Positions 1,477-54,644 of a stretch of 64,000 nt of DNA are shown piece after piece. Location of the stretch: assembly GCA_964527775.1 (NCBI GenBank), contig CAZGQS010000002.1, positions 16,883 to 80,882 of the forward strand, in the 5' to 3' direction. Below the pieces are notes generated by a model. The model saw only the letters and a list, made by a program, of their open reading frames with translations, did not search any database and was not told the DNA's origin. The DNA is from an uncultured Rhizobium sp. GTDB taxonomy: Bacteria; Bacteroidota; Bacteroidia; NS11-12g; UBA955. Each line of letters begins with the position of its first letter. Position 1 is the stretch's first letter. Both the position numbers and the translations under genes were made by a program.

Positions 1477-1609
1477 TTTAGAGTTTAGGGTTTAGGGTTT
1501 AGGGCCGAGAGCTGAAGGCTGGCTGCTGGGTGCCGACGGCCGAGAGCTGATAGCTGAAGGCTGACGGCTGGGTGTCGACGGCTGATCACCGATCACCGAA
1601 AACCGGTGT
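1477..1609. repeat. Degenerate heptamer tandem array (19 units; TTTAGRG then mostly CYGANNR)
   Basis: Unbroken 7-nt register: tttagag tttaggg x3 ccgagag ctgaagg ctggctg ctgggtg ccgacgg ccgagag ctgatag ctgaagg ctgacgg ctgggtg tcgacgg ctgatca ccgatca ccgaaaa ccggtgt. Confidence 0.9.
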
Positions 1610-1612
1610 TTG

Positions 1613-1684
1613 TGGTCCCGCCGCGAATCGAACGCGGATCTAAAGTTCCGGAGACTTTCGTAGTATCCATTCTACTACGGGACC
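1613..1684 (-). tRNA. tRNA-Arg(CCG)
   Basis: Reverse complement GGTCCCG...CGGGACCA forms the acceptor stem; D-arm GTAG/CTAC; anticodon arm AAAGT-CTCCGGA-ACTTT; T-arm CCGCG-TTCGATT-CGCGG. CCA not encoded. TATCTTTG promoter element upstream near 1701-1708. Confidence 0.95.
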
Positions 1685-1710
1685 GTTAAAAATATCGCTG
1701 CAAAGATAGG

Positions 1711-3273
1711 CTATTCCTTTATGAAGCGAATGTAGGTATTAGTGTTTTCTGTCCTAGAGTGCAAGATAAGAAGGTAGGCTCCAGGGTTTAAATGTTTGAT
1801 TTGTAAATATGAATGGGATAATGGTTGGTTATGTTCTAATTTTCTTCCAAATGGGTCAAGAATGCTGTAAGAATCAATATTCACAGTAGAATTTATTTGG
1901 ATGATTTCTGATGCTGGGTTTGGAAAAATAGAGATATTTGGGGAGAAGGAGTTTGCAGACATTGTGCTATCTGGTCCTTTTTGGTACACCCTGACGTAAT
2001 CAATTTCCATACGGGATGAATCAAACGTCGCATCAACTTGGGGTAATACTGCAATGTTGAGTAAGATGTATTGATCTTTGGTGAATGGCCAATTGTCTGA
2101 AGTTTTTGTTGTAGGTTCATAAGAGTGAATTTCAATACTATCAACAAAAAACAGTAGTTTTTCGGGTGTCCAAACTAGGGAATAAACATGGTAATTGTTG
2201 TAGGGATCAGGTAGGTATTTTCCGCCGGTTTCAACACCACCAAACCGTGCTTGGGTATGAACGGCCGCCGAAACATAACGAGGGTTATGTCCCCAGCTTT
2301 CCATAATATCCATTTCGCCACATTTAGGCCAACCCACGGTTTCGGCGTTTCTGCCCCAATAGTTTCCGGTTTCACCAATATTGGTTCCGAGGGTCCAAAT
2401 AGCGGGCCATACGCCGTTTCCTGACGGAAGTTTGGCTCTGACGTCTATTCGTCCGTAGGTGAATGCGAATTTTGAGTTAAGTCGTGCGGAAGTGTAATCT
2501 TTGGTGCTGTTTTCGTAGGTGTACTTTTCTTTTTTCAGCACAATTTTCAAGCTTCCGTTGCTCACATAAGAATTGTCAAGTTTGTCTGTGTAGTGTTGAA
2601 TTTCGCCGTTGAACCAGCCGCCATTATTAGGGGGGATGATTTGCGGGTGCCAATTTTCGGATTTGGGTTTTCCTGTGTAGTCAAATTCATCGGCCCAGAC
2701 GAGTTTGCCGAAATGTGGAATGCCTGTGTTTTGTTGGCTTCCCCCGGGAGAAACAAATCCTTTGATATCGTCTAAATGGTATTCACCGGCTTTATACTCA
2801 TTGGGTTCAAAGAAGATGGTTAATCTTGTGTAGGTTCCTTTGGCATTGATGGGAGCGTCAGATCCTACAGTTTTGGCTTGAGCAAAATTGAACGAATCTA
2901 AGTGCCAAGTGCTGGTTTTGAATCTTTTTTGGACGTAGACATTGGGCTCCCCCGTGGTGCTATTTTCGAGTTTTATTTGGAAAGTGAATGAGTCGCCTTC
3001 TGCGTGATAAAGACTGAAAAATAACTTTTTGGATGAATCAAGAATAACTCCTTGTTTCAAGTCAATGAAAGCACCTTCGTATAGGCTGCCTGCGGTGTTG
3101 GTGAAGACGGCAACATTATTATTTGGACGCAGAGGGTCTTTTGCTTTAGTGAATTCGGTTCCGCCAAAAACAGAGAAATTATGCTCATTGGATTCGAAAG
3201 TGAGAGGTAAATTCTGAGATTTAATTGAATAAGTGAGACCAATAAGAATAAATAGGAGCAGGTTTCTAAGCAT
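1711..3273 (-). CDS. T9SS-secreted GH16 beta-1,3-glucanase (laminarinase-like) with N-terminal CBM-like domain
   Basis: WADEFD, YTSARL, WPAIW and catalytic GEMDIME motifs; C-terminal IFPNPA sorting domain. Signal peptide favours ATG 3273 over 3315. Confidence 0.9.
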   Translation of the reverse strand: MLRNLLLFILIGLTYSIKSQNLPLTFESNEHNFSVFGGTEFTKAKDPLRPNNNVAVFTNTAGSLYEGAFIDLKQGVILDSSKKLFFSLYHAEGDSFTFQIKLENSTTGEPNVYVQKRFKTSTWHLDSFNFAQAKTVGSDAPINAKGTYTRLTIFFEPNEYKAGEYHLDDIKGFVSPGGSQQNTGIPHFGKLVWADEFDYTGKPKSENWHPQIIPPNNGGWFNGEIQHYTDKLDNSYVSNGSLKIVLKKEKYTYENSTKDYTSARLNSKFAFTYGRIDVRAKLPSGNGVWPAIWTLGTNIGETGNYWGRNAETVGWPKCGEMDIMESWGHNPRYVSAAVHTQARFGGVETGGKYLPDPYNNYHVYSLVWTPEKLLFFVDSIEIHSYEPTTKTSDNWPFTKDQYILLNIAVLPQVDATFDSSRMEIDYVRVYQKGPDSTMSANSFSPNISIFPNPASEIIQINSTVNIDSYSILDPFGRKLEHNQPLSHSYLQIKHLNPGAYLLILHSRTENTNTYIRFIKE

Positions 3274-3324
3274 AGTCTTCAAAAATAGGGCTAAAATATT
3301 TATACCTTTGTACATAGTTTACTC

Positions 3325-4167
3325 ATGATAGCCGCAACTTCAAAAACTTTAAAACACCTTCGCCGCTTGGCCTTTGCTGGGCTTCTTTCCTTCGGGTTTG
3401 TATGGTTAGCAGGCTGTGAGCTTTATTCTCAGTCAATGGAAAATTCAGCCGGTGATAATTATTTTTCAGACATGATTGTAACTCGTTTGGTACATACCGT
3501 TCAAGATGCCATTGTGGCGAATGATAGTGGTTGGAACATGGGTCATGCAGCGGAGATGACATTTTCAAGTAAACCGGGCGAAAAGAAGTTGGAAATGCGT
3601 TACGGAGTTGATTATGTTACAGATTATGACGGATTTGAAAGGAAGGGAACGGTTACAACAACTTGGGATAGAAGCTTTTTTATACCTGGTTCTACCATGC
3701 ACATTGTGATGGAAAATGAACACGGTACCAATAATTGGGCTACCAAGGGTTTTATTGATGTAACCAATTGGGGTTTGAATGAGTGGGATCAACCCATGTA
3801 CGAGGTAAGATGCAGTTTGGAGTTGATTTCACCGGCGTATAACTGGGAATGGACCAATGAGTATATCAGAGTTAAAATTTCAAAAGACAATACACCACAA
3901 TCAACGGATGATTTATGGAGTGTTACGGGAACGGCTTATGCCAGAAATAGGCAGGGTAGATTTTACAATGCCTTTATAAAAGATTCTTTGTACTACAAAC
4001 CTAGTTGTAAGTATGGTTACACTCGTGGCAAGGTAGATATTCAACATGTTGATGCTACTCAAAGGGTTTTTGTAGTTTATGGCGAAGGAACAGATACGGC
4101 TTGTTCTCAGTACATGACTTTTGATCGCGGAAATCGCAAATTAACGGTTACTAAAAATTTGAAATAA
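3325..4167 (+). CDS. Hypothetical lipoprotein
   Basis: 280-aa ORF with LAGC lipobox; TACCTTTG upstream. Confidence 0.7.
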   Translation: MIAATSKTLKHLRRLAFAGLLSFGFVWLAGCELYSQSMENSAGDNYFSDMIVTRLVHTVQDAIVANDSGWNMGHAAEMTFSSKPGEKKLEMRYGVDYVTDYDGFERKGTVTTTWDRSFFIPGSTMHIVMENEHGTNNWATKGFIDVTNWGLNEWDQPMYEVRCSLELISPAYNWEWTNEYIRVKISKDNTPQSTDDLWSVTGTAYARNRQGRFYNAFIKDSLYYKPSCKYGYTRGKVDIQHVDATQRVFVVYGEGTDTACSQYMTFDRGNRKLTVTKNLK

Positions 4168-4185
4168 ATCCAATACTTTTGGGGT

Positions 4186-4728
4186 ATGAAAAAAATAATC
4201 CTACCCTCATTTGTTATTGCCATAACTCTTTGGATGTGGCAATTTGTATCATTTGCGGCTGCTAATTTACATTCTGGCGGACAACAATACACTCCGTACC
4301 AAGATACTATCGCCTCTTTTATTGGAAAGTTAAATTTGGCTGATGGGGAGTATTTAATACCGCAGGTAGATCCCAAGAAACCAGACATGAAGATGGAAGA
4401 TTGGAATCAGTATTATGGCAAACCATGGATGTTTTTGAAATATTATAATAACCGTGAAGACGTTATGGGAATGAACATGATTAGGGGCTTCTCCAGTAAT
4501 TGGGTTGCTGGCTTTATCATTATTTACCTGTTGAACTTAATGGGTTCAATGAAGTTGATTAAGTCTATTCTTACTACCTTGGGAATGGGACTTGTGGTAT
4601 TCATTTATGTACCATATACCAATCATATTTGGTTTCCGGATTTTGATACTCTAATTACTCTGTTGGATTGTTTAGCTCCATTTGCCTTGATAGGAGTTTG
4701 GAACGGATTATTCTGGAATAAACAATAG
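4186..4728 (+). CDS. Hypothetical integral membrane protein
   Basis: 180-aa ORF with about four hydrophobic segments; TACTTTTG at 4174-4181. Confidence 0.7.
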   Translation: MKKIILPSFVIAITLWMWQFVSFAAANLHSGGQQYTPYQDTIASFIGKLNLADGEYLIPQVDPKKPDMKMEDWNQYYGKPWMFLKYYNNREDVMGMNMIRGFSSNWVAGFIIIYLLNLMGSMKLIKSILTTLGMGLVVFIYVPYTNHIWFPDFDTLITLLDCLAPFALIGVWNGLFWNKQ

Positions 4729-4730
4729 TC

Positions 4731-7082
4731 TTATTGCCAGCTATAAATCTTGCCTTTTTGATTCATCCAATAACTGCGGTCTGGCTCTGAAATAAGCAGG
4801 TAATTTTGAAACATCTGATCTACAATTTCATTGAAATGGTAGTTACTGATTATGGCATTACCACCTTTTGTTACCAATTCATAACCGCCTTCGTCTTCGG
4901 AGTGCGGTGACTGAACAATCCAAGTTCCAGGAAATTGGGAAGATTCAATTTGAAGATAATCCTCAGGTAATACTGTATTGCCTTTGAGGTCAATAAGTCC
5001 AATAAAACCATCGCTGGAATTAGTAAGAAAATACTGCGTCTGATCTGATCTTGAAATGCTAAAATGGGGGGTTGGATGAACTGTTTTCTCTGTGATGATG
5101 TTTACTAAGTGAGTGCGAGAAACGATACTGTCTTTTTTGAGTTTAAATGTGGTATCTGTGGTAAATCCAATGAGACTGTCGTTTAAAATAGCAATTGATT
5201 GAGCAGTTGGTTTGCTCAGTTCCCAGTTGGAAGGATTTAGCCATTTTTGTCCCCAAAAAGAAGTATTGCCGCGCTTGTTATTAGATGAATTGACTTTAAT
5301 AGAAGTGGTAAATATCTTGTTATCAACCGTTTCAAATTGAAGTTTTTTGTGAACTTTTATGGGTTGGAAGTCTTGATTATATATTGTGGATTCAGATTTA
5401 TCATAGATACAGAAATACACTTGGTTGTTAGATTGGATCCATAAGGGTTCCTTTTTCAAGCCAACGGCAATGGTAGTAAGCCCTGTATCGGTGAATTTGC
5501 CGACATTCATTTTGTTGATCCAAAAATAACCTTTCGCAAATTGAGTACACGATTGAAAGGTATCTGAAATGGTCTTGAAATTTGAATCTAAGAAATAGAG
5601 GTTTGCGCCTTTTTGAACAAGAATACGAGTTTTTGGAATATTCCAAAGATCAACAGGCGATTGAAGACTATATTCGTTGAGTTCAGAGATGTCATCAAAT
5701 TCAAAAGGTGTTAGAATTTTACCCTGTTTGTTGTAAAATGCCCAATGAGTACCATTAAATAATGCTCCTTGTCCGCTGGCTGTATCAAAATAGATTTTCG
5801 GGAATTTGCAGGGTAAAAGTTCCTTTCCCGTGGAGTTTATAAGTCCATATCTTTCAGATTTTGTGACAAAGGCCAAGTTTTTTTGAATTTGAATGGGGAG
5901 ATCGCTGTACTTATTATTAGAGATGGGTGTTCCATCTTTTTCAATGTAATAGTATTCAGGGTTGTCAAATAAATCATATTTCATGACCAAAGCACATTCG
6001 GGAATGAGATGTGCGCCGTTTGAAAACCATTGGGTATGGTATTTTTTTGCAAAAGGGAAGGCGAAGTCGTATGTAGAATCCGTCCATTTTTCTAGAGTTA
6101 TTGAATCTACGAAGGCAAATTTACCGCGTTTGGTGTAGAACGGTACTGGGGTAATTTTGAGGTATCTGAGTAGATAGGACGCTGTCTTTTTGTGTTTACC
6201 GAAGGGATATTTATTCAGGTAGTTTGAATAGGCTACAGTAGAATTTATTTGTTTGCTCTGAATAAATGCAAGATTATCAGCAAGCGATAGTGCTTGTTTT
6301 TGTTGGGCTGCTTTTGGGTAGTCATCAATGAATTTCAAATAGGCTTCTTCGGTGTTTTGATATTCAGCTTCATTGAAGGCCATCTTATACAACGAGTCCG
6401 TTGCTTGTGTATAAAAGCTCAAGAGATGGGCAGGATAAGCGGAGCTATCAGGCATGGCTCTCCAAATCAAGGTGTATTTTTGCAAATCGGAGATTTTATT
6501 GGTTGAAAGCGCTTGTTTAAAAGCAATGGTATCATTTAAAGACGACAAACAATAAATGATATGAGGTAAGGATATTTTGGTGTTGATGTTGCCGTTTTTG
6601 GGGAAGTGTTTTTCTAAGGTAGTTTGCTCATTTTGAAAGAATTGCAAGAGTTCAATGTTCTGGTTGGGGTCAGTCATGGATCGTTCTTGGTTGTACTTGT
6701 CGTAAAGAAGTTTACGGTAGTATAGATTTAAGTAGGTTTCGTCAAAATAGTACCACTTCAGAAATTCTTGTTTTGTTTCAGGGTTAAACAAAAAAGCCGC
6801 AGTGGCTTTAATTGATGCATTTCTAGAAAAGAAAATGGCTTGGTTCTTTTGAAGGTGATGTGTGGCGAGTCGAGACAGAGAATGCCAATAAATGGGATTG
6901 GCTGTATCATTGGTTTGAGACCGTTTGATGAGTTTTTTCTCGGCCTTTAAGAACTGGCTATCAACAATATTTCTATGTATTCTGTACTGTGGATTTAACC
7001 AAGGTTTGAGCGATTGTGCTTTCAAGGCACTTATACTGGTCAAGCAGAGTAAAATAAGATGAAACCCAACTCTCAAATTCAT
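4731..7082 (-). CDS. WG-repeat-like secreted protein
   Basis: Signal peptide; repeats such as YGLINSTGKELLP and IGLIDLKGNTVLP; helical 'YLKFIDDYPK / YLNKYPFGKH' repeats. Confidence 0.65.
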   Translation of the reverse strand: MNLRVGFHLILLCLTSISALKAQSLKPWLNPQYRIHRNIVDSQFLKAEKKLIKRSQTNDTANPIYWHSLSRLATHHLQKNQAIFFSRNASIKATAAFLFNPETKQEFLKWYYFDETYLNLYYRKLLYDKYNQERSMTDPNQNIELLQFFQNEQTTLEKHFPKNGNINTKISLPHIIYCLSSLNDTIAFKQALSTNKISDLQKYTLIWRAMPDSSAYPAHLLSFYTQATDSLYKMAFNEAEYQNTEEAYLKFIDDYPKAAQQKQALSLADNLAFIQSKQINSTVAYSNYLNKYPFGKHKKTASYLLRYLKITPVPFYTKRGKFAFVDSITLEKWTDSTYDFAFPFAKKYHTQWFSNGAHLIPECALVMKYDLFDNPEYYYIEKDGTPISNNKYSDLPIQIQKNLAFVTKSERYGLINSTGKELLPCKFPKIYFDTASGQGALFNGTHWAFYNKQGKILTPFEFDDISELNEYSLQSPVDLWNIPKTRILVQKGANLYFLDSNFKTISDTFQSCTQFAKGYFWINKMNVGKFTDTGLTTIAVGLKKEPLWIQSNNQVYFCIYDKSESTIYNQDFQPIKVHKKLQFETVDNKIFTTSIKVNSSNNKRGNTSFWGQKWLNPSNWELSKPTAQSIAILNDSLIGFTTDTTFKLKKDSIVSRTHLVNIITEKTVHPTPHFSISRSDQTQYFLTNSSDGFIGLIDLKGNTVLPEDYLQIESSQFPGTWIVQSPHSEDEGGYELVTKGGNAIISNYHFNEIVDQMFQNYLLISEPDRSYWMNQKGKIYSWQ

Positions 7083-7185
7083 AGGTGTATATAACTTCAA
7101 ATATATATCAAATGGTATATGGGTTGTGATTTTTTCGTTAAGGGCTTGGAATTTAGAAATTAGGGAGGTATTTTTGTTGTCTATT

Positions 7186-7368
7186 ATGAAAAAGCAAATT
7201 TTATTTCTTGCTACATTTTGTCTGATTGCTTTGGCTTTTTCTCAGGCAGGTTTCGATGATGACGTAGTTGACGTACCCGTTGATGGTGGTATTATTTCTG
7301 TGGTTGGCAGTGCGTTAGCGTATGGCATTTATCGCAACAGAAAAGCGGCTAAAGCAAAGAACGATTAA
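7186..7368 (+). CDS. Small secreted peptide with PID-CTERM-like sorting signal (60 aa)
   Basis: Signal peptide MKKQILFLATFCLIALAFSQA, short acidic core, VPVDGG motif, TM helix ending in AYG, basic tail RNRKAAK. TATTTTTG at 7169-7176. Confidence 0.75.
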   Translation: MKKQILFLATFCLIALAFSQAGFDDDVVDVPVDGGIISVVGSALAYGIYRNRKAAKAKND

Positions 7369-7388
7369 GATTCTAAAATTCAGATAGT

Positions 7389-7419
7389 AAAAAGGCTACC
7401 CTTGGGTAGCCTTTTTTTT
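7389..7419. terminator. Bidirectional intrinsic terminator
   Basis: AAAAAGGCTACCC-TT-GGGTAGCCTTTTTTTT between convergent genes. Confidence 0.85.
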
Positions 7420-7422
7420 GTT

Positions 7423-8406
7423 TTAGTATTGTGGATGAATGGGTTTGTTTTGAAGTATATCCTCAATTTTTAACATGATCTCGTCTGTCAAGAGAGGCAA
7501 GATATCAGCAGATTTCAGTGTTTCAGTCAGTTGCTCCTCTTTGGTAGCTCCTAAGATTACCGTTGAAACATTTGGATTTTTCATGCACCATACAACTCCT
7601 AATTTAGGAAGGGTTGTACCCAAGTCTAATGCCAATTGATGAAGACTTTTCACTTTAAGGGCATTTTCGGGGGTCATTAATCTTTCTGCAAGCCATCCCA
7701 GCTCTTCGCGTTTGAGTCTAGAATCTGCGGGAATACCATTGAGGTATTTGCCTGTTAAAAGCCCACTAGCTAAAGGTGACCAAATGGTGGTTCCTAGTCC
7801 CACGGTTTTGTAAATTTGGGAATACTCCACTTCTACCTTGTCTCTCACCAACATATTATATTGTGGTTGCTCTACTACCGGTCCAATTAAATGGTTTTGA
7901 CGCGCAAACATATGGGCTTCCATGATTTCTTGGGCACTCCACTCGCTGGTTCCCCAATACAGAATTTTGCCCGACATGATCAATTGATGCATGCTCCAAA
8001 CCGTCTCTTCAATAGGGGTTGCTTTATCTGGGCGGTGGCAGAAGTACAGGTCTAAATATTCTACTTTTAATCGTTCAAGTGCTTGATTACAAGCTTCAAA
8101 AATGTGTTTTCTGTGAAGTCCTTTTTGTGTGGGGACTTTCGCACCAGCACCAAAAAAAACTTTAGAAGAAACGATGTATGAATCTCGCGACCAGGTTCGG
8201 TTGCTGAGTATTTTACCCATCACTCTTTCTGATTCTCCTGCTGCATATACTTCGGCGTTGTCAAAGAAATTAACTCCTGCATCATAGGCAATGTCCATGA
8301 GGCGTTCGCTGATTTGATTTTGGATTTGATTTCCGAAAGTGATCCAAGAGCCAAAGCTCAATCTACTAACTGGTAGCCCGGTTTTTCCTAAATTGACGTA
8401 TTCCAT
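7423..8406 (-). CDS. Aldo/keto reductase, Kv-beta-like subfamily
   Basis: SRLSFGSWITFG, FFDNAEVYA, YWGTSEWSA and WSPLASGLLTGKY motifs. Confidence 0.9.
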   Translation of the reverse strand: MEYVNLGKTGLPVSRLSFGSWITFGNQIQNQISERLMDIAYDAGVNFFDNAEVYAAGESERVMGKILSNRTWSRDSYIVSSKVFFGAGAKVPTQKGLHRKHIFEACNQALERLKVEYLDLYFCHRPDKATPIEETVWSMHQLIMSGKILYWGTSEWSAQEIMEAHMFARQNHLIGPVVEQPQYNMLVRDKVEVEYSQIYKTVGLGTTIWSPLASGLLTGKYLNGIPADSRLKREELGWLAERLMTPENALKVKSLHQLALDLGTTLPKLGVVWCMKNPNVSTVILGATKEEQLTETLKSADILPLLTDEIMLKIEDILQNKPIHPQY

Positions 8407-9877: not shown

Positions 9878-9882
9878 AAGAA

Positions 9883-14086: not shown

Positions 14087-14208
14087 TTTTACTAACAGAT
14101 TAGGCAGTAGCTCAATGTAACCATAGTATTTTTATTAAGGTTTTTTAATAGGTTCAAATCATCCTATTTTTCAAGTGTATTTCAGATAATCGTGTAATTT
14201 TGTTTTTA

Positions 14209-18955: not shown

Positions 18956-19234
18956 ATGAAAAAACGCATTAATATTTCTATAGATTCTGATATACACGAA
19001 CAAGCCCAGCGGCATGCATTTAGAAAGGGCATAAGTCTGAGCAATTTTATTGAAACAGAACTAAGCAGGGCCATGAAACAATCTACTGAATTGAGCACAG
19101 CTGATTATCCTGGAATATGGTCTCATCTAAATTTGGAGCAGCGCAATCACCTTATTCAATATATGAGTTTCTTGGCAGACAAGGGTAAATCTGGTGATTT
19201 GCCTTTTACGGCTGAGGGGATAGGGTCGTTGTGA
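18956..19234 (+). CDS. Ribbon-helix-helix (DUF6364-like) antitoxin-like protein
   Basis: MKKRINISIDSDIHEQAQRHAFRKGISLSNFIE has the RHH pattern. Confidence 0.7.
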   Translation: MKKRINISIDSDIHEQAQRHAFRKGISLSNFIETELSRAMKQSTELSTADYPGIWSHLNLEQRNHLIQYMSFLADKGKSGDLPFTAEGIGSL

Positions 19235-19336
19235 CCAGCGATCGGTGATCGGTGATCGGTGATCAGTCTTCGGACAGCGGACAGCGGTCATCGGTCAACC
19301 GACAACCGATAACCGATAACCGATAACCATAGACCA
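19232..19336. repeat. Degenerate heptamer array with inverted halves (15 units)
   Basis: tgaccag cgatcgg tgatcgg tgatcgg tgatcag tcttcgg acagcgg acagcgg tcatcgg tcaaccg acaaccg ataaccg ataaccg ataacca tagacca. Confidence 0.9.
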
Positions 19337-19368: not shown

Positions 19369-19812
19369 ATGAGAGTGTATTTAAAATCTACTGTGATCCT
19401 TTTCTTGGGATTGTCAATGTTAATTTTCAGTTCATGCGGAAAGGATAAGCCTGAGGTAAAACCAAGCATTTTGGGGAAGTGGGATCTGCTTTCAATCAAA
19501 GGTGATTACTTCATTCACTCAACCAATAAGTTGATTGGCTCTGAGGAAGAAACCTATTTACCTGATGAAACGGTTCTTGAATTTAATTCGAGTAATCAAG
19601 TGTTGATTTATGAGAGTGGCTTTGTTGAAGATGTATTTAATTATACATATGAGAATAATAAGTTAATATTTAAGTATGATTTGACAGGTTCGGATAGTGA
19701 TACTTTTTTTGTGTCATCATTGAATAATACTCAGTTGATTTTCAAAGGAATTGAGATAGACACAAGCGAAGACTTTAGATCAGAATCCACTTTTAATTTG
19801 AAACGGAAATAA
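19369..19812 (+). CDS. Lipocalin-like lipoprotein
   Basis: FSSC lipobox and ILGKWDL (GxW) motif. Confidence 0.7.
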   Translation: MRVYLKSTVILFLGLSMLIFSSCGKDKPEVKPSILGKWDLLSIKGDYFIHSTNKLIGSEEETYLPDETVLEFNSSNQVLIYESGFVEDVFNYTYENNKLIFKYDLTGSDSDTFFVSSLNNTQLIFKGIEIDTSEDFRSESTFNLKRK

Positions 19813-24391: not shown

Positions 24392-24766
24392 GGTGGAGTT
24401 GGGGGGAATCGAACCCCCGTCCGGAGATGCGAAAGCTGGCGCTTTCTACAGGTTTAGAACTAGATTGGTTTTCGAGCAATTCTAGGCTCCGTTCTTGCCT
24501 TTAAATTGCCTTAGCGAACTTTATAATGCAAGTGGTCATTCGCAACCCCTTATGCATACCCGTGCAGGTCGATTGCCTCTGATAGACTTCGGCACGAGTC
24601 AAGAAGTCTGAGACAAATGGCACAATGCTAATCGCTCGGATTAAGCAGCCATGGCGTAGTTATTTTCGCCTCTTAATGGTTTGAAAGTTCAGATTTGGGT
24701 GCAACACTTACAACGCACCACCTGCTTACACCGCGTTCATTCATCCCGTCAATTCCGATCAACCCC
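24392..24766 (-). ncRNA. ssrA: tmRNA
   Basis: 5' GGGGTTGATCGGAATTGACGGG; 3' GACGGGGGTTCGATTCCCCCCAACTCCACC; tag ORF at 24670-24641 encodes GENNYAMAA*. Confidence 0.95.
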
Positions 24767-45461: not shown

Positions 45462-45504
45462 ATCTCGATGGTTTACGCACTCGAGATGTTCTCAGGAATT
45501 CCTG

Positions 45505-45582
45505 GTCATTTCCCTCCGCAGGCATTATCCTGAGCAGGTTAGCGGGTATAATCTCAGCGCTCCTTAGAGGCACCCCGAATGC
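45505..45582 (-). promoter_or_regulatory. TPP riboswitch
   Basis: GGGGTGC...GCTGAGATTATACCC...ACCTGCTCAGGATAATGCCTGCGGAGGGAA matches the THI-box consensus. Confidence 0.92.
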
Positions 45583-45633
45583 GGTGCGAATATACAATCT
45601 TTTTAATTAGCCCTACCTTTGTGGAAGATTTTT

Positions 45634-47162: not shown

Positions 47163-47623
47163 TATTGGTTAACCTTTCTGATTTGCGTGGGTTGATAAAT
47201 GATTGGTTTTTCTCCTTGCTTGTATTTTGGACGAATCACAGTGATATCTCCTTCTAATTGGAGTTCAAATGAACCTTCGGTGTAATCTACAAAAGCTCTT
47301 TTAAAGAAAGGGCCAGGAGGAACATTTTTTGATTGCAAGAACAAAACAATGCTGTCGGTGGCGCCGGCTTCTATGCCTTTTTCAGGGAAGGCGAATTGAG
47401 TGCACACACAATCGGGTGCTACTTGTGCGATATACTGTGTTTCTGTTGAGTTATTGCGGACGTGAAATACGGCCTCAAAAATATCTCCTGAGTTTAATTT
47501 AGCTGATAATTTATTGCTGCCAATAACCTGAAGTGGACCTTCAGGGGTTGAAGTTAATTGAGCATAGGAAATGCTGAATTTAAGGGATAGGAAAATTAGG
47601 AGGATTAGTTTGGTTGTTTTCAT
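47162..47623 (-). CDS. DUF1573-like secreted protein
   Basis: Signal peptide; FHVRN...VAPDCVCT...GIEAG. Confidence 0.7.
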   Translation of the reverse strand: MKTTKLILLIFLSLKFSISYAQLTSTPEGPLQVIGSNKLSAKLNSGDIFEAVFHVRNNSTETQYIAQVAPDCVCTQFAFPEKGIEAGATDSIVLFLQSKNVPPGPFFKRAFVDYTEGSFELQLEGDITVIRPKYKQGEKPIIYQPTQIRKVNQ

Positions 47624-47625
47624 AT

Positions 47626-48378
47626 TTATTTGATACCAAACTGAAGTTTTACGGTAATACTTGCTTTCTTATTGATGTCAGTGGTATTGTACACACCTCC
47701 CCATGAGAATTCTTCCGATGAGTTTTTACCTGTAATTTGGAATACACCCATACTTGCCTGTCTGAGCGCACCTAGACTGCTGTTGCTTTTCTCAGCGATG
47801 TTTTTAGCTCTGTTGGTGGCATTCGCCGTAGCATCTGCGATCAAAGCAATCTTTAAATCTTCCAACTTTGAGTAGAAATACGATGGAGTGGAAGAATTGA
47901 TTTCAATTTCTTCGTTGATCAACTCAGTAATTTCTCTCGATGTTTGTTCTACCAATTCAATATTTGATGTTTCAATGTCAATGGATTGACTGAGATTATA
48001 TCCATCAAACACTTGGGTATAACTATAATTGCCATACTTGTTCTCTTCGCGTTTTTCCAAATATGATTTATCCGCTTCAATGGATGAAAAGATGAGCTCT
48101 TCAGGTTTAAATCCTTTAGAAATTAAATATTCCTTTACTCGCTGAGCATCCTTTTTTAGTTGAGTAAATCCTTCAGTTCTTGACATTGCTTTTCTTCTAA
48201 ATGAAACGCTCCAATTCGCGAGATCTGAACGAAATTCTTTTTCAGCTAGTCCTGTGGTTGCTATGGTTTCTTGGGATGTAAATTTGTATTTATATCCTTC
48301 GGAAAGAATAGCCGATGAGATAATAACAGCAAGGGATATCAATCCTACGGCAACGATGTTAAGAGTTCTTTGATTCAT
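47626..48378 (-). CDS. SIMPL (DUF541) domain protein
   Basis: TTGLAEKEFRSDLANW, ATANATNRA..IA, LRQASMGVFQI and K.ASITV motifs. Confidence 0.85.
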   Translation of the reverse strand: MNQRTLNIVAVGLISLAVIISSAILSEGYKYKFTSQETIATTGLAEKEFRSDLANWSVSFRRKAMSRTEGFTQLKKDAQRVKEYLISKGFKPEELIFSSIEADKSYLEKREENKYGNYSYTQVFDGYNLSQSIDIETSNIELVEQTSREITELINEEIEINSSTPSYFYSKLEDLKIALIADATANATNRAKNIAEKSNSSLGALRQASMGVFQITGKNSSEEFSWGGVYNTTDINKKASITVKLQFGIK

Positions 48379-48417
48379 AGTGAGTTTAACGAGTAAAAAT
48401 AGGAATTATTTTAACAG

Positions 48418-48446
48418 AAAAAGGCTGCTTTGAAGGCAGCCTTTTT
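48418..48446. terminator. Intrinsic terminator
   Basis: AAAAAGGCTGCTT-TGA-AGGCAGCCTTTTT. Confidence 0.8.
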
Positions 48447-48450
48447 AAAT

Positions 48451-48882
48451 TTACTTAATGATGATTGGAGAAACGGGTTTTTCTGGTTCTTTAATCACAT
48501 TTCCAGAAATAGTCAAAGTAGATTGACCAGCATTGCTGGTTACAAAAATGTTTTTGCTGAACGTTCCGGGTCTTCCACTGGAATTGTATTCTGCTCTAAC
48601 TACAGAAGATTGTCCAGGTTGAATCAATTCACGTGGCCACTTTGGTGTTGTACATCCACAACTCGCACGCACGTTAGTGAGTTCTAGAGGTTCAGTACCA
48701 GTGTTTGTGAATTTAAATTCGTATGTGGCAATTTGTCCTTCGATGATGTTCCCAAAGCTGTGGCTAGAGGTTTCAAATACTAGATTTGCATTGCTGGTTT
48801 TTTCAGCTGGGGCTGTCTCCGTTTGTGCAAAAGCACCAACGGCAAAAAACAGGCTTGACAATGATAAAAGGAACTTTTTCAT
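48451..48882 (-). CDS. DUF1573-domain protein
   Basis: HSFGNI...FKFTNTGTEPL...ASCGCTTP..IQPG. Confidence 0.9.
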   Translation of the reverse strand: MKKFLLSLSSLFFAVGAFAQTETAPAEKTSNANLVFETSSHSFGNIIEGQIATYEFKFTNTGTEPLELTNVRASCGCTTPKWPRELIQPGQSSVVRAEYNSSGRPGTFSKNIFVTSNAGQSTLTISGNVIKEPEKPVSPIIIK

Positions 48883-48888
48883 GGTTAC

Positions 48889-49308
48889 TTATTTAATGTC
48901 GCTTTTCTTGGTCTCAGGTTCAGTAGTTACTGTGCCGCTGATGGTTAAGTCGGTCATATTTCCATTGTCAAATTCTACTTTTACAGATTTTTGGAAATAA
49001 CCAGGGCGTCCATCAGTTCCATAGCTAGCCTTTACTTCTCCAGATTCACCTGGCATGATGGGAGTTTTGGTCCATGAAGGAGTAGTACATCCACAAGATG
49101 CTTGAGCATTTTTAATGACAACAGGTGCGTTAGAAGTGTTGGTGAATTTGAAAACGATATCAGCTGGTGGACCCATTTTAATGTTACCAAAATCGTGTGA
49201 TTTGTGTTCCCATTTGATTGCAGGTTCAGGTTGAACAGCTGTTTTTTGAGCGAAAGCTGAGGTCACCACGGTGAGAGCTACAGCCAAGAATGATAATGCC
49301 TTTTTCAT
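48889..49308 (-). CDS. DUF1573-domain protein
   Basis: HDFGNI...FKFTNTSNAPV...ASCGCTTP..IMPG; signal peptide from ATG 49308. Confidence 0.9.
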   Translation of the reverse strand: MKKALSFLAVALTVVTSAFAQKTAVQPEPAIKWEHKSHDFGNIKMGPPADIVFKFTNTSNAPVVIKNAQASCGCTTPSWTKTPIMPGESGEVKASYGTDGRPGYFQKSVKVEFDNGNMTDLTISGTVTTEPETKKSDIK

Positions 49309-49414
49309 ATTCTTTTGTTTTTTATTTTCGTTGTGCAAGTTTTATACCAAAGTAGACGATTTCAATGGGATTTTCGTTGCAGTGTCGTTAAAAATTATTT
49401 TTTTTCAGACGAAA

Positions 49415-52216
49415 TTACAACTTACGTTTAACTTCTTCTTCTACGAAAACCTCGAGGTAATCGCCTTCTTCAATGTCGTTGTAATTCGAAATTTGAAGTC
49501 CGCACTCGTATCCCTTGGTCACTTCTTTCATATCGTCTTTGAAACGTTTTAAAGAAGCTAAGCTACCTTCATGTTTAACCACACCGTTGCGAATGACGCG
49601 TATTTTACTTCCGCGCTCCACTTTTCCGTCGGTAACATAAGAACCTGCAATGGTACCCACTTTAGTAATTTTGAATACTTCGCGAATTTCAACGTGACCA
49701 ATGACTTTCTCAACGATTTCAGGAGACAACATGCCTTCCATAGCCGATTTGATTTCTTCAATGGCTTGGTAGATGATGCTGTAGGTTCTGATATCAATTT
49801 GTTCATTTTCAGCAATCAATCTAGCCTTAGCAGATGGTCTCACTTGGAAACCAACAATGATAGCGTCAGATGCCGAAGCCAACAATACGTCACTTTCGGT
49901 GATTTGTCCAACACCGCTGTGAATCACGTTAACGGCAATTTCATCGCTACTCAACTTCATCAAGGCGTCTGTCAATGCTTCTGAAGAACCATCTACGTCT
50001 GCTTTAACAATAACTTTCAATTCCTTGAAGTTACCAATTGCCAAACGACGTCCAATTTCATCAAGGGTAATGTGACGCTTGGTTCTGATACCTTGTTCAC
50101 GCACCAATTGTTGACGTTTGTTTGCAAGTGTTTTGGCTTCGTCTTCGTTGGCCATGATGGCGAAAATATCACCAGAAGTTGGTGCATCTGAGAATCCTAA
50201 TATTTTAACTGGTGTAGATGGTGGTGCCTCTTCGATTCGTTGTCCACGTTCATTGAACAATGCACGAACTTTCGCATATTGAGCGCCAGCTACCATATGG
50301 TCACCCACTCTTAGGGTACCTGTTTGAATTAATAGGGTACAAACTATACCTCTTCCTTTTTCTTGAGTTGCTTCGATGACGGTACCTTTAGCTCTTCTGT
50401 CAGGATTAGCCGTAAGCTGCATCATTTCTGCTTCCAAAAGTACTTTTTCAAGAAGTACATCTATGTTAAGACCTTTTTTAGCACTGATTTCTTGAGCTTG
50501 GAATTTACCACCCCAATCTTCAACCAAGATATTCATAGATGCCAATTGTTCGCGAATTTTATCTGCGTTAGCACCGTCTTTATCAATTTTGTTGAATGCG
50601 AAAATCATAGGAACACCTGCTGCTTGAGCATGTGCGATAGCTTCTCTTGTTTGAGGCATGACGCTATCGTCAGCTGCAATAACAATGATGGCCATATCTG
50701 TAACTTTGGCACCACGAGCACGCATAGCGGTAAACGCTTCGTGACCTGGAGTGTCTAGGAAGGTGATTTTCTTACCGTCTTTCAATGTTACTTCATAGGC
50801 TCCAATGTGCTGTGTGATACCACCTGCCTCACCGGCAATTACGTTTTCCTGACGGATATAATCGAGCAACGATGTTTTACCGTGGTCAACGTGTCCCATC
50901 ACCGTAACGATAGGAGCTCTTGGCTTTAAATCAGCGGGGTTATCAATTTCTTCATCAACGGCTTCAACTTGAGATTCTGCATCAACAAATTGTACTTCAA
51001 AGTGGAAGTCGTCTGCCACCAATTGAATGGTTTCAGCGTCAAGACGTTGGTTGATAGAAACCATCATACCCAAAGCGAAACATTTAGAAATTACTTGAGT
51101 AACTGGAACGCTCATCATAGTTGCCAATTCATTGGCTGTCAAGAATTCTGTTACTTTAAGAACTTTGCTTTCCTCGTCTTTGCGGCGTCTTTCAGCTTCG
51201 AAACGGCGGTTACGTTCTTCTTTATTGTCTGTTCTTTTTCTATCGCGCCCGTTCTTCTTACTGCCCATTCTGTTGAAGGTAGATCTCACATTGGTATTCA
51301 CCTGTGAGGTAGTAACTTCTGGTTTTGGAGATGTAACGGGTTTGTGTGCTTTATTGTGTTGATGTTCACGTTGAACCGTTTCTTGAACGGCCACTTTAAC
51401 TTCAACACCTTTTTCTTTGCGTTTACGTTTTTTGCGGATCTCTTGCATGTCCTTACGGGCTTCTTGTGCAAGCGATGAGTTTCCGCTTTTCTCAACTGGT
51501 AAAAGGATTTTTCCTAAAACTTTAGGGCCAGAAAGAACTTCTCTTCTGGTCTCGTGTCTTTCGGGTTCATCAGATACTGTTACTTCAGCTGCAGGAGCTT
51601 TAACCTCTTCAACAGCTGGAGCTTCTTCCTTAATTTCTACAGGCGCAGGAATTGGGGTTTCTACTTTTACTTCAACGGGTGCAGGGGTTTCAACTGGGAT
51701 TTCTTCTTTTACTTCAACAGGTGCAGGTGTTTCAACCTTAACCTCTTCCACTATTTTCTTACTTTTCGGAGTAAGATCAATTTTCCCAATAACTTTTAAT
51801 CTTGATGCTGGTTTCTCCTCAACAACTTCTTCTACTGAAACTTCAACTGGGGCTGGGGTATTTTCTACTTCAGCTGGTTGGATTGTTTCGGTAATTGGAG
51901 TTTCAATTGGGGTTTCTACAACGGGCTCAGGAGCTGATACCACAATGGGTTCAGGTGCGGAGATTGTTTCTACTGTCTCTACTTTTTCACGAGTAGGAAC
52001 TGGGCGAGCGGGTTGATTCGCTTTTAGTTTGTCAGCTTCTTCTTTTGCAGCTCTGTCTGCTGAAAACTCTTTCAGACAAGCTTGATACATATCCTCGGTT
52101 ATTTTGGTTGTAGGACGTGCATCAACACTAAAGCCTTTCGAATTTAAAAAATCGGCTATAGCAGTGGCACTGCGATTGATTTCTTTGGCAACTTTTGCTA
52201 AACGGTATTCCGCCAT
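49415..52216 (-). CDS. infB: Translation initiation factor IF-2
   Basis: [20 protein letters not shown] and NKID G-motifs; C-terminal LKRFKDD...ECG. Confidence 0.98.
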
Positions 52217-52328
52217 AATTTCATTCAAATTTAATGGTATCCTTTATAACTCCCAAGGATTTATCGGGGAAACTGCAAATGGAATTTCCCCGATCGGCTC
52301 CAAAGGAAGGCCGTTTTTATAAATTGTC

Positions 52329-53582
52329 TTATTCTTCGTCGAATTCTTCGCGTAGAATTTTCTGCACTTGAAGAATGGTTTCTTCTTCTAGGTCAGTGCG
52401 TTGGAGAAGATCTTGAACTGAGGTTCTCAGTACATCTTTTGCAGAGTCTAGGCCAATTTTCTTAAATTCTTCGATAATCCAAGTATCGATTTCGTCTAAG
52501 AATTCGTCCAAATCAACGTCGTCTTCAGAATCGGCATTGACACGATAAACTTCAATTTGATATCCGGTCAATTTAGACGCTAACTTGATGTTATGTCCGC
52601 CACGTCCTATAGCTAAAGAAACCTGATCGCTTTCAAGGTATACGTTAGCGGTTCCGTCTTGGATGTCCATTTTGCTAATTGCAGCAGGTTGGAGAGCGCG
52701 TTGAATGAAGAGGGTTTCATTGGTGGTGAAGTTGATCACGTCAATATTTTCATTGCGTAATTCTCTAACAATACCATGAATACGAGCACCTTTTACACCC
52801 ACACAAGCCCCAACTGGATCAATGCGGTCATCGTAGCTTTCAACGGCCACTTTAGCTCTTTCACCTGGTTCACGTACAATTTTCTTGATGGTAATCAAAC
52901 CGTCTAAGATTTCAGGAACTTCCAATTCAAACAAACGTTCCAAAAATTCAGGAGAGGTACGAGAAAGGATGATTTTTGGGCTTCCCTTATCCATTTCAAC
53001 ATCTTTAATGACAGCACGAATGGCGTCACCTTTTTTGTACATATCGCGAGGAATCATTTGGTCTTTAGGAAGGGTTAATTCGTTTCCTTCGTCATCAAGA
53101 ACCATGATTTCACGTTTCCAAACATTATAAACCTCACCTGTGATAATTTCACCGCGGCGATCTCCGTATTTACGGAACAATTCGTCTTTTTCAAGTTCAA
53201 TGATTCTAGACATCAAAGCTTGGCGAGCGTTCAACACGTTTCTACGTCCGAAGTCTTCCAAGCCAATTTGTTGAATACAATCTTCTCCCACTTGATAGTC
53301 GGCTTCAAGTTGCTGAGCATCTGAAAGAGAAATATGTAGGTTTTCATCTTCTACTTCGCCTTCTTCCACAATCAGTCGGAGGTGGTACATTTCAATATCA
53401 CCGGTTTCGGTGTTGATGATGATGTCAAAATTAGCTTCTTGACCGTACTTCTTTTTAAGGATGTTTCTAAATACATCTTCAAGCACGCGCATCATGGTGG
53501 CGCGGTCGATGTTCTTGAATTCTTTGAATTCTGAGAAACTTTCCACTAGGTTTATACCTAGCTCTTTGGACTTTGCTTTCAT
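52329..53582 (-). CDS. nusA: Transcription factor NusA
   Basis: REPGERAKVAV, DPVGACVG and SLAIGRGG; position in the rimP-nusA-infB operon. Confidence 0.97.
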   Translation of the reverse strand: MKAKSKELGINLVESFSEFKEFKNIDRATMMRVLEDVFRNILKKKYGQEANFDIIINTETGDIEMYHLRLIVEEGEVEDENLHISLSDAQQLEADYQVGEDCIQQIGLEDFGRRNVLNARQALMSRIIELEKDELFRKYGDRRGEIITGEVYNVWKREIMVLDDEGNELTLPKDQMIPRDMYKKGDAIRAVIKDVEMDKGSPKIILSRTSPEFLERLFELEVPEILDGLITIKKIVREPGERAKVAVESYDDRIDPVGACVGVKGARIHGIVRELRNENIDVINFTTNETLFIQRALQPAAISKMDIQDGTANVYLESDQVSLAIGRGGHNIKLASKLTGYQIEVYRVNADSEDDVDLDEFLDEIDTWIIEEFKKIGLDSAKDVLRTSVQDLLQRTDLEEETILQVQKILREEFDEE

Positions 53583-53583
53583 A

Positions 53584-54048
53584 CTATTTAAAACTTATGA
53601 TAATTTTTGCTTCTTTTATGTCTGAAAAGGGAACGTCAACAGGTTGAATTTCTATTTTTTTCTTTCCTTTTTCTTTGTATTCGTTCAATATTTTAAGGAT
53701 ATCACCCTCAATGGCCTCAAGCTTTCCGGTGTAGGAATTTTCTTGGGTATGAATTTCAAAAGATCTCCCTATATGTTTGTGAAATTGTCTAAAGTCTCTA
53801 AGAGGAGCATCAGCTCCTGGTGAAGAAATTTCGAAGGTAAAAGGATGATCTCCAAAGTCGTCTTCATCAATCAAATTAGAAACTTGTTTGGTGAAATCGG
53901 CCAAGGATTTCATTGAAAGAGGTTCTTGAGAGTCAACATAAAAGCGGAACAAACCGGTAGGACTTACCGTGTAATGAACTACAAAAAGATCAAAAGCTTG
54001 GGCTTCTTGATCAACGAGGGCTTTTAATTTTTCTCCTAACTTTTTCAT
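53584..54048 (-). CDS. rimP: Ribosome maturation factor RimP
   Basis: EISSPGADAPL motif; synteny with nusA. Confidence 0.92.
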   Translation of the reverse strand: MKKLGEKLKALVDQEAQAFDLFVVHYTVSPTGLFRFYVDSQEPLSMKSLADFTKQVSNLIDEDDFGDHPFTFEISSPGADAPLRDFRQFHKHIGRSFEIHTQENSYTGKLEAIEGDILKILNEYKEKGKKKIEIQPVDVPFSDIKEAKIIISFK

Positions 54049-54055
54049 ATCCAAT

Positions 54056-54090
54056 AAAAAAGGGGACTGCTTTTCGCCTGCCCCCTTCCT
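54056..54090 (-). promoter_or_regulatory. rimP leader terminator-like hairpin
   Basis: AAGGGGGC-AGGCGAAAAGCA-GTCCCCTTTTTT just upstream of the rimP start; TATATTTG promoter element near 54123-54116. Confidence 0.65.
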
Positions 54091-54169
54091 AACTTTTAAC
54101 TTTGGAAAAGTCTTGCAAATATAGCAAAAATTTAGAAATTTTCACCACAATTGCGCTTGATATCTACAA

Positions 54170-54532
54170 TTATTCGTCAAATACGATAATCTCTTCTTGT
54201 TCGAAGTACTCAATGATGTGTTGTCTGAGCAAATTTTCTTGTTCCAACAAGGTTAAATTAGGAATGGGCTGATCTTTTTCCCAAACGGGCCACCCGTTCT
54301 GGTCTTGTCCAATGAGTTTATAATACCCCGAATAACTTAGCACCCTGCAATTAGCAATGTGCATGAGGTGCGTTTTCTCTTCTTTTGTGAAGGGTTTCTC
54401 GTTTATTTGTCCGAGTTCTCTGATACCAATCAAAAACAACACCGCATTCAAATCGGGTTTTTTTTCGAAGTTCTTTTCTATAAACTCCACTACTTGGAGC
54501 CATTTCGATTTTATTTCTTTGTGGAGGGACAT
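54170..54532 (-). CDS. Conserved Bacteroidota hypothetical protein
   Basis: PDLNAVLFLIGIRELG...FTKEEK..LMHIA.C..LS..GYY...D..GWP.W pattern. Confidence 0.8.
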   Translation of the reverse strand: MSLHKEIKSKWLQVVEFIEKNFEKKPDLNAVLFLIGIRELGQINEKPFTKEEKTHLMHIANCRVLSYSGYYKLIGQDQNGWPVWEKDQPIPNLTLLEQENLLRQHIIEYFEQEEIIVFDE

Positions 54533-54540
54533 TTTTTTGG

Positions 54541-54644
54541 TTGTCGGTTTTCAGTTTTCAGTTTTCAGTTTTCAGCCTCGGCTCTCGGCTCTCGGCTCTC
54601 GGCTGACGGCTGACGGTTGACGGCTTTCGGCTGACCGCTGAATT
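54541..54644. repeat. Degenerate heptamer array (about 15 units)
   Basis: ttgtcgg ttttcag x4 cctcgg(6 nt) ctctcgg x3 ctgacgg x2 ttgacgg ctttcgg ctgaccg ctgaatt. Confidence 0.9.

Follow-up and report, generated by a model that had tools for sequence, protein, structure and literature searches.

Introduction

To our knowledge, bacterial tandem heptamers have been catalogued since 1990 without an assigned function or generator. Those of cyanobacteria, the short tandemly repeated repetitive (STRR) sequences, were reportedly described by Mazel in that year. Here we examined three intergenic arrays of 7-nt units in a stretch of 64,000 nucleotides (positions 16883-80882 of contig C2, henceforth the window) from the genome of an uncultured member of the Bacteroidota (G000; 2,456,840 nt in 65 contigs, 39.8% GC, a 93%-complete assembly). 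The arrays, at window positions 1477-1609, 19232-19336 and 54541-54644, belong to a genome-wide family. In our best reading, the full form of this family is a gene of the PF05635/TIGR02436 type, a four-helix-bundle protein, between two inverted arrays of 7-nt units.

Heptamer repeats as such are already in print. Heptamers have been named the leading class of long simple-sequence repeats (SSRs), and polymerase slippage was proposed as their source (Mrazek 2007, summarised in PMC4679880). Like the arrays of G000, the STRR heptamers of cyanobacteria and heptanucleotide long SSRs show a genome-wide excess in non-coding DNA, a sporadic phylogenetic distribution and no assigned role (PMC4679880). 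They differ in belonging to another phylum and apparently in using other words. Conserved sites with species-specific words were not found described for STRRs or long SSRs in our literature search, as far as the parts of the texts covered go.

Closer in several respects are GGGAATC of Xanthomonas and GGGGAYT of Nostoc. The Xanthomonas repeats are 89-93% intergenic and lie on average 28 nt past the upstream open reading frame (ORF); the same sites are occupied in two species, while length and sequence vary (Rehm et al., 2015; PMC4692102). Both families share with the arrays of G000 the period of 7, a number of intergenic arrays that runs from dozens to hundreds per genome, a position shortly past the upstream ORF, sites common to sister species, some inverted-repeat pairs and the lack of an assigned function (PMC4692102). 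They differ in being G-rich single-word families which were studied for quadruplex formation (PMC4692102), whereas G000 uses about 16 effective words in ordered dyad blocks, has G runs of only GG, and its arrays are linked to gene cassettes. The heptamer repeats of Nostoc affect expression (bioRxiv 10.1101/2022.06.06.494920). The TAACTGA repeats of Beggiatoaceae, cyanobacteria and five Bacteroidetes are likewise heptamer direct repeats (MacGregor 2015, PMC4679880). They comprise only 2-6 copies, mostly just upstream of start codons (PMC4679880), whereas the arrays of G000 are longer (median 78 nt) and lie mostly behind stop codons. Mixed intergenic heptamer assemblies, with contigs ending in them, are described for Gramella, Aequorivita and Elizabethkingia (PMC4679880).

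Among the accounts compared here, the one that joins heptamers to a PF05635-family gene is that of the intervening sequence (IVS) in the 23S rRNA of Coxiella burnetii. There, the S23p ORF is preceded by two to three strain-variable GACAGAT heptamers, and the IVS is bounded by a 28-bp inverted-repeat terminal stem which is cut by RNase III (Warrier et al., 2016; PMC4990558). The likeness is a long inverted-repeat stem whose loop contains an ORF of this family, with tandem heptamers beside the ORF. The Coxiella IVS is deemed a selfish element, its ORF dispensable and decaying (PMC4990558). It differs in residing inside rRNA helix 45 and in having only two to three heptamers, and RNase III cutting was shown for the IVS only (PMC4990558). 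The elements of G000, by contrast, lie between protein genes, have arms of up to about 35 units and mostly lack an ORF.

Repetitive extragenic palindromic (REP) sequences and bacterial interspersed mosaic elements (BIMEs), with their REP-associated tyrosine transposases (RAYTs), are species-specific short palindromic repeats, hundreds of which populate a genome downstream of genes and in convergent gaps. A REP is one imperfect palindrome about 35 nt long. The arrays of G000 resemble them in number and gene-end placement, but are tandem heptamers instead. A Y1 transposase of the RAYT type (PF01797) was found in none of five genomes searched (G000 and its relatives G005, G023, G024 and G017).

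Results

Heptamer arrays form one genome-wide family

The whole of G000 was scanned for periodicity by autocorrelation at five threshold settings. At all thresholds period 7 was in large excess, with 159-184 arrays compared with 0-3 at periods 4, 5, 6, 8, 9, 10 and 11. Tandem Repeats Finder (TRF) gave the same picture: among the rows scoring at least 50, 223 had period 7, one had period 6 and three had period 8. One setting of the scan yielded 177 arrays in 146 loci, 16.6 kb in total, with a median of 78 nt.

Word sharing was compared with simulations in which the pattern of unit-to-unit change of each array was kept and the starting heptamer was random (50 runs). The commonest word occurs in 66 of the 177 arrays; in the simulations it occurred in at most five. 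In all, the arrays contain 75 distinct exactly doubled words with an effective number of 16.2, compared with 364 (effective 318) in the simulations. Independent slippage alone cannot yield a vocabulary about 20 times narrower than simulated, as had been suspected from the three arrays of the window. The initial annotation had named two findings that would speak against a common family, the lack of an excess of period 7 and word sharing no greater than in slippage simulations; the genome displays the opposite on both counts. A statistic based on shared 14-mers was dropped because simulated independent arrays share 14-mers, too (102/177); word-spectrum statistics were used in its place.

Read in one register, the commonest words are CCGATCA (281), CCAAAGA (177) and CTGACGG (117), followed by CCAAGGA (75), CTGAGAG (74) and CCGAAAA (70). 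A shared core, initially given as CYGANNR, is indeed present; yet it is better written CYRA, or CYRANNN in one register, because CCAAAGA and CTAAACT share the same register. Neighbouring words in an array differ by single substitutions, and runs of identical units are present in every array. The least variable 4-nt blocks are GCTG, CGGT, CCGA, ACCG and CCAA. Changes from unit to unit are concentrated in three adjacent phases (64% compared with 58% expected, p=1.7e-9), which indicates a moderately conserved core of 4 nt.

The loci are organised as dyads. In 113 loci, the left halves contained 233 TCRG-type (NNNTCRG) versus 116 CYGA-type tokens and the right halves 320 CYGA-type (CYGANNN) versus 81 TCRG-type tokens. 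A common order of blocks is (TCTTTGG)n and (GTTTAGA)n, next either a 17-nt repeat or a small G+C hairpin, then (CTGANNG)n, CTGATCA and finally (CCGATCA/CCGAAAA)n. Real loci fold better than unit-permuted ones (-35.3 versus -31.5 kcal/mol; 138 loci); z fell below -2 for 22% of the loci and exceeded +2 for 2%.

The arrays are mainly non-coding: 75% overlap a called ORF by less than 20%, a share affected by the crude ORF caller, which picks the longest ORFs. Convergent gaps are favoured (57 of 112 arrays with two flanking ORFs, compared with 295 of 1876 gaps genome-wide) and divergent gaps are avoided (10/112 compared with 305/1876). The median distance from array to stop codon is about 0-6 nt. 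Array loci are clumped, with an index of dispersion of 1.7; on contig C1, for example, 15 loci fall in the first 100 kb, and the ~250 kb that follow (C1:100000-368000) are free of them.

Two other repeats accompany the arrays. The 17-nt unit, GACTCACGCTTCGCTAG-like, constitutes a second tandem repeat with 40 clusters, 31 of which are within 100 nt of heptamer arrays (e.g. C11:21358-21492, C3:5826-6251 and C14:65-199); one cluster is located directly upstream of a four-helix-bundle gene. Further, an inverted repeat, TGTCTA...TAGACA, is present in short non-heptamer sequences adjoining several arrays (C1:368817-368970, C26:29250-29330, C27:36-122, C13:53922 and C29:19199). Some of these loci may be one place duplicated at contig ends.

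Arrays flank four-helix-bundle genes

G000 was compared with a set of 41 related genomes. Its sister G023, which is ~96% identical, lacks an ORF of 114 aa that G000 has between arrays. The family of this ORF is PF05635/TIGR02436, the 23S rRNA intervening-sequence proteins, with a weak match to Avd (NF033474, E=6e-5). A link of such arrays to four-helix-bundle genes of the IVS/Avd-like kind had been stated at the outset. It was verified, outside the window. All four PF05635 genes of G000 (contigs C1, C14 and C34) lie between repeats, and three of them are 28-107 nt from period-7 arrays; by comparison, 3.4% of randomly placed 300-nt pieces had an array within 100 nt. The genes on C34 and C14 have period-7 arrays on both sides in inverted orientation. 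The C1 gene has a period-7 array downstream and a period-8 run upstream, and the fourth gene adjoins the 17-nt repeat.

Each cassette gene has words of its own, namely TGATCGG/TAGGTCGG...CCGATCA, TCTTTGG...CCAAAGA and GTTTAGA...TCTAAAC. At least one exact cassette word is present in 115 of 171 solo arrays, and cassette words account for 45% of the doubled-word occurrences. The small shared vocabulary of the genome includes exactly the words which flank its own cassettes.

The array-gene-array block on C1, ~640 nt, is missing in G017 and G021, where the same two genes are ~80 nt apart. Therefore, the array-gene-array unit is an insertion. No target duplication was seen at this cassette. At the orthologous site of the C14 cassette in G023, the arrays and the leader are kept and the gene is missing. 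The syntenic C1 site in G005 has a gene which is 55% identical, with other arm words. The C14 cassette protein is 99% identical between G000 and G005. A transfer was considered and rejected since the surrounding DNA is 90-94% identical; the likeness is one of ordinary orthology.

A conserved motif, TTTGCGGAAAGTGCAAA, was noticed at C1:21747-21767 and C34:13098-13118, i.e. 76-86 nt upstream of two four-helix-bundle genes, between arm and ORF. It might serve as a promoter or in processing. At locus L002 (C1:20695-23715), the C1 cassette has on its left a gene that is inverted in G005 (C21) and G024 (C32) relative to G000. The break falls in the array/cassette region, and arrays may act as inversion points.

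The association was then sought in other genomes, with 250 nt on either side of a gene as the array window. Of the 30 top-scoring PF05635 genes of a phylum sample, 10 had a period-7 or -8 array within this distance; 13 arrays were found in 15.0 kb near the genes compared with 6 in 73.6 kb farther away. In a scan of 80 PF05635 loci from public genomes, 43 had such an array, and the density was 60 arrays in 39.6 kb near the genes versus 8 in 142.2 kb far from them, a roughly 27-fold enrichment. No near arrays at periods 4, 5, 6, 9 or 10 were found at these loci. The downstream arm is the reverse complement of the upstream arm. Even the array-poor genomes G001 (L115) and G031 (L122) have arrays flanking a four-helix-bundle gene. 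Judged by their labels, examples outside the Bacteroidota are from Acidobacteriaceae, Ignavibacteriae, Nomurabacteria, Fibrobacter, Anaerolineae, Gastranaerophilales and Rubricoccaceae.

The words of the arms were related to the proteins between them. The mean 5-mer cosine of arm words was 0.70 at a protein identity of at least 70% (6 pairs) and 0.06 below 50%, a correlation reached by 2 of 500 label permutations. Among the 22 pairs that share words, 13 were above the 90th percentile of protein identity. Words are shared even across phyla, between L221 (Fibrobacteres) and L242 (Flavobacteriaceae) and between L194 (Ignavibacteriae) and both L204 and L153; several such cross-phylum pairs have proteins 51-56% identical, compared with a median of 45% for all pairs. 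Inverted period-7 arrays recur at four-helix-bundle genes in many phyla, with words that go with the protein subfamily. Clustering the proteins by single linkage at 55% identity put 39 of 52 into one cluster; it was uninformative and was abandoned.

Other periods were encountered at such genes as well. At L123 (G031 C7:106500-108300) a four-helix-bundle gene is situated between inverted period-6 arrays, and at L101, L188, L197, L207 and L240 the genes are flanked by inverted period-8 arrays. A TAGAT core recurs in the period-8 words and in the period-7 words of related proteins.

Array sites are conserved while words change

Among the 41 genomes, (CCGATCA)x3 is present in two, G000 and G023. 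A six-unit CYRA pattern is abundant only in these two, with 596 and 747 matches versus 24 and 31 for a backwards control; the arrays of G005 and G024 match pattern and control alike. In sampled DNA, 25 period-7 arrays were found in 400 kb of G005, 10 in 400 kb of G023 and 3 in 200 kb of G024, and none of any other period. In G017 no period-7 array was detected in 200 kb sampled. The words of G005 and G024 differ from those of G000 (e.g. GGTAGTT, CCATAGT, GGTACAT and CCCGAAA). The commonest words of G005, GGTAGTT, GGTACAT and CTACCCT, are the arms of a cassette in G024.

Array sites were then followed between genomes. Of 15 array loci examined in G023, seven could be anchored in G000, and all seven have an array there; the syntenic flanks are 83-98% identical and the blocks differ. 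Of 21 array loci in G005 and G024, nine were syntenic. At six of these nine G000 has an array as well, made of different words in every case, and the sites of the second and third window arrays are among those syntenic with G005/G024 arrays. From species to species the sites persist and their content is exchanged. As the vocabulary is uniform in each genome and species-specific, and as the sites are inherited, a genome-wide homogenising or copying process is required, in line with the common generator that the initial annotation had suggested as one of two possibilities.

The turnover itself was examined in orthologous arrays of G000 and G023. They did not change by gain or loss of whole units; rather, blocks were replaced. 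Length differences were divisible by 7 in one of nine pairs, and therefore simple 7-nt slippage does not describe the turnover. Only 14 locus pairs among the 146 loci of G000 share a complex 35-mer, some of them contig-end duplicates, so that there was no recent burst of copying. Turnover is a short-scale replacement of blocks, neither simple slippage of units nor recent copying of whole elements. Assignment to miniature inverted-repeat transposable elements was considered and rejected, as the 14 pairs are not the many near-identical copies with defined ends expected of this class. Explanations by G-quadruplexes, Dam/GATC sites or primase sites were set aside because sister species use other words.

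The three arrays of the window

All three window arrays, to which no strand is assigned, consist of head-to-tail 7-nt units in several copies according to TRF and to direct reading of the sequence. Direct reading also bore out every word that the initial annotation had reported as shared between them: CCGAGAG at 1505 and 1540 with CTCTCGG at 54582, 54589 and 54596; CCGATCA at 1589 with TGATCGG at 19246 and 19253; CTGACGG at 1561 and 54603; and CCGACAA at 19299 with TTGTCGG at 54541.

Array 1 (1477-1609; TRF period-7 rows 1476-1504 and 1584-1599) is composed of (GTTTAGR)x4, about 11 GCYGNNN units and then CTGATCA-CCGATCA-CCGAAAA. It terminates in a small hairpin, CACCG-AAAAC-CGGTG, at 1594-1608, followed by TTTG. 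The array fills the gap between the stop codon of an ORF at 36-1475 (+ strand) and the 3' end of a gene for tRNA-Arg (CCG) at 1612-1684 (- strand; ARAGORN, Rfam RF00005), which it abuts. The ORF has a type IX secretion C-terminal sorting domain (PF18962, E=1.2e-5; at 25.9 bits slightly below the cut-off of 27). Relative to G024, where stop codon and tRNA are separated by 20 nt, array 1 is an insertion.

Array 2 (19232-19336; TRF rows 19241-19297 and 19297-19328) is a dyad of (TGATCGG)x3-TGATCAG ... (CCGACAA)(CCGATAA)x3. It folds as one hairpin, with -39.2 kcal/mol on the + strand (z -2.5) and -44.2 kcal/mol on the - strand (z -3.3). It begins at the stop of an ORF of 92 aa at 18956-19234 (+) with a weak DUF6364/CcdA-like match and ends 33 nt before an ORF at 19369-19812 (+) coding for a lipocalin-like protein. 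The orthologous sites carry arrays of other words in G005 (L016, 2916-3136) and G024 (L017, 2894-3101).

Array 3 (54541-54644; TRF rows 54547-54575, 54577-54604 and 54600-54641) reads TTGTCGG-(TTTTCAG)x4, a 6-nt slip, (CTCTCGG)x3, (CTGACGG)x2 and TTGACGG-CTTTCGG-CTGACCG. The slip, 'cctcgg', is the only one, in agreement with the initial description. The + strand forms one dominant hairpin of -47.6 kcal/mol (z -5.5; none of 200 shuffles was equal) and the - strand one of -27.7 kcal/mol (window 54535-54650); the + strand fold is stronger because of G-U pairs. To the left, the start codon of a gene at 54170-54532 (-), which has no Pfam match, is 9 nt from the array. To the right, the array ends 66 nt before a gene for a SIS-domain protein, MurQ/GKRP-like, at 54710-55519 (+). 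Thus, the statement that each array is at a gene boundary is correct for all three, yet the gap of array 3 is divergent, i.e. promoter-side, and not a gene 3' end. The site is common to G023 (68 nt, other blocks) and to G005 and G024 (other words), and no array is present there in G001 or G017.

As initially noted, the window has no four-helix-bundle gene; the PF05635 genes are on C1, C14 and C34 and the window is on C2. Arrays 1 and 2 contain CCGATCA, the arm word of the C1 four-helix-bundle gene, and array 1 in addition holds the C34-type CCTAAAC (canonical AAACCCT). At most, the window arrays are gene-less derivatives of cassettes.

No match to Rfam 15 at gathering score was found over the arrays; the matches in the window are a tmRNA, tRNA and a thiamine pyrophosphate (TPP) riboswitch only. 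The tmRNA gene (24392-24766, -; tag ENNYAMAA) and the TPP riboswitch (45494-45587, -) are ordinary. A 42-nt tandem repeat at 51653-51748 has two copies with 80-90% matches in TRF. The window stretch is present in public runs from aquatic and freshwater metagenomes. Contigs from short reads break at heptamer arrays, both in G000 and in the public runs: Logan contigs of three DNA runs end or fork at both arrays examined, with depth spikes because other loci match. None of the RNA contigs of the public runs lay across an array.

Discussion

We propose to regard the arrays of the window as gene-less arms of cassettes of the IVS-like four-helix-bundle kind, spread and reshuffled by recombination, and we give this reading a probability of roughly one half. 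Arms and cassettes would spread and be reshuffled between loci by recombination between arrays, including short-tract conversion, block replacement and the exchange of cassettes at fixed sites. Runs of identical units would arise locally by slipped-strand mispairing. Dyad arrays, when transcribed, would form long stems, possible substrates of RNase III if rRNA intervening sequences are a guide. The elements would then be tolerated, largely selfish spacers rather than regulators. The cassette words in the solo arrays and the replacement of blocks at kept sites are consistent with this proposal. So are the empty sites in relatives, which were found at the position of array 1 (G024), of array 3 (G001, G017) and of the C1 cassette (G017, G021). 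Inverted arms are evident in arrays 2 and 3, which are dyads folding as hairpins, and as a bias in the whole family.

A number of observations weigh against cassette descent. Array 1 does not fold into a single long hairpin (+ strand, z -0.7; - strand, z -1.8), and among 49 loci the better folder was the sense strand in 17 and the antisense strand in 31. None of the window arrays contains or adjoins a PF05635 gene. Array 3 has only words of the CTGA class and related ones, without a resident gene, and this class (CTGAGAG, CTGACGG, CTGACCG) is abundant in the whole genome without a resident gene in the 93%-complete assembly. Solo arrays are without remnants of a cassette leader: two motifs were sought genome-wide and matches were found only at genes or far from arrays, save for a single loose match on C15, at a distance of 17 nt from an array. 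In G005, the closest relative of the G024 cassette protein whose arms supply its commonest words is only 58% identical. A PF05635 gene is present in 31 of 41 relatives, most of them without array families, and in 234 of 301 sampled genomes of the phylum; its presence alone therefore does not predict arrays. PF05635 genes without arrays are common, 37 of 80 in the public genomes and 20 of 30 in the phylum sample, and are also found in G017, G021 and G039. The correlation of words with proteins is confounded and inflated by kinship of the hosts. The length differences and the small number of shared 35-mers reported above count on the same side. Finally, we know of no mobility enzyme for these cassettes.

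The main rival is that the arrays are plain long SSRs. Replication slippage, in a replisome with an inherent bias to 7 nt, would create and alter them; they would be retained where harmless, and four-helix-bundle genes would land in or beside them incidentally. Heptamers are the most abundant class of long SSRs in many bacteria and slippage is the explanation offered (PMC4679880, PMC4692102), and the placement and site behaviour of GGGAATC in Xanthomonas are as here (PMC4692102). Word classes without a resident cassette and the identical-unit runs in every array fit as well. Yet slippage acting independently at each locus does not account for so narrow a vocabulary, nor for words that change genome-wide between species at conserved sites, nor for length differences that are not multiples of 7 in eight of nine pairs. 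Incidental landing is hard to reconcile with the ~27-fold local enrichment at four-helix-bundle genes and with inverted pairs there, even in array-poor genomes. We thus consider this explanation doubtful.

Less probable still, and in our judgement unlikely, is that the arrays serve as binding sites. An oligomeric protein, the four-helix-bundle pentamer or some other factor, might read the 4-nt core every 7 nt and have a role in gene regulation or in nucleoid or RNA organisation; words and reader would then co-evolve. The initial annotation had suggested such a protein, with one heptamer bound per subunit, and the four-helix-bundle protein would be a candidate for it. The semi-conserved block of 4 nt next to three variable positions would suit such a reader, as would the agreement of array words with the protein subfamily across phyla. 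The Xanthomonas S23p forms a homopentameric toroid (cited in PMC4990558), and PF05635 resembles the nucleic-acid-binding protein Avd of diversity-generating retroelements (DGRs) (PMC10053308). In Nostoc, deletion of heptamers altered the read-out of a promoter, and an unidentified partner was proposed (bioRxiv 10.1101/2022.06.06.494920). Against this stand two abundant word classes without a cognate gene in the same genome, the modest size of the concentration of changes in three phases, and the avoidance of promoter-side gaps.

Functional 3' hairpins, either bidirectional terminators or mRNA-stabilising stems selected at gene ends, appear improbable. Arrays do start at stop codons and fill convergent gaps, many of them fold strongly, and arrays 1 and 3 each close with a small hairpin and, after it, a T-rich tail. 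But hairpin-plus-T-run sites are not enriched after gene ends with arrays (13 of 104, compared with 254 of 1749 without); the arrays are not canonical terminators. Folding of the transcribed strand is no better than that of its complement, array 1 is not a hairpin and array 3 is located in a divergent gap. Moreover, relatives lack arrays at the same sites, and the content varies freely between genomes that are 96% identical.

Synthesis of the repeats by a polymerase (templated, telomerase-like or of a retroelement), or their spread by a Y1 transposase of the REP type, is highly improbable: the fixed period and the polar order of word blocks in many loci would fit, but recent identical copies are missing, no Y1 transposase was detected, and the templated synthesis envisaged in the initial annotation finds no candidate, as PF00078 reverse transcriptases were not found in the array-rich G000, G005 and G024 or in G017, with one in G023.

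Returning to cassette descent, what it would mean extends beyond the window. One genome unites arrays with a grammar, sites that outlive their sequences, and words that equal the arms of cassettes. Arrays also mark at least one inversion between sister species. Apart from the Coxiella IVS, a literature search that fell short of most subscription journals and of supplements gave no published account connecting heptamer arrays with PF05635 or four-helix-bundle genes. Quite tentatively, pentameric S23p/Avd-like proteins may be sequence-specific readers of their own arrays, which they would use to spread, protect or process the cassettes. The heptamers of cyanobacteria, Xanthomonas, Bacteroidota and the rRNA IVS might then be footprints of one ancient, enzyme-poor class of mobile elements, of which genomes such as G000 would carry hundreds of gene-less arms. 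The heptamer puzzle is in this way turned into questions for the bench, i.e. binding of the protein to the array, cutting by RNase III and movement of the cassette, and the large orphan family PF05635 gains a candidate nucleic-acid partner.

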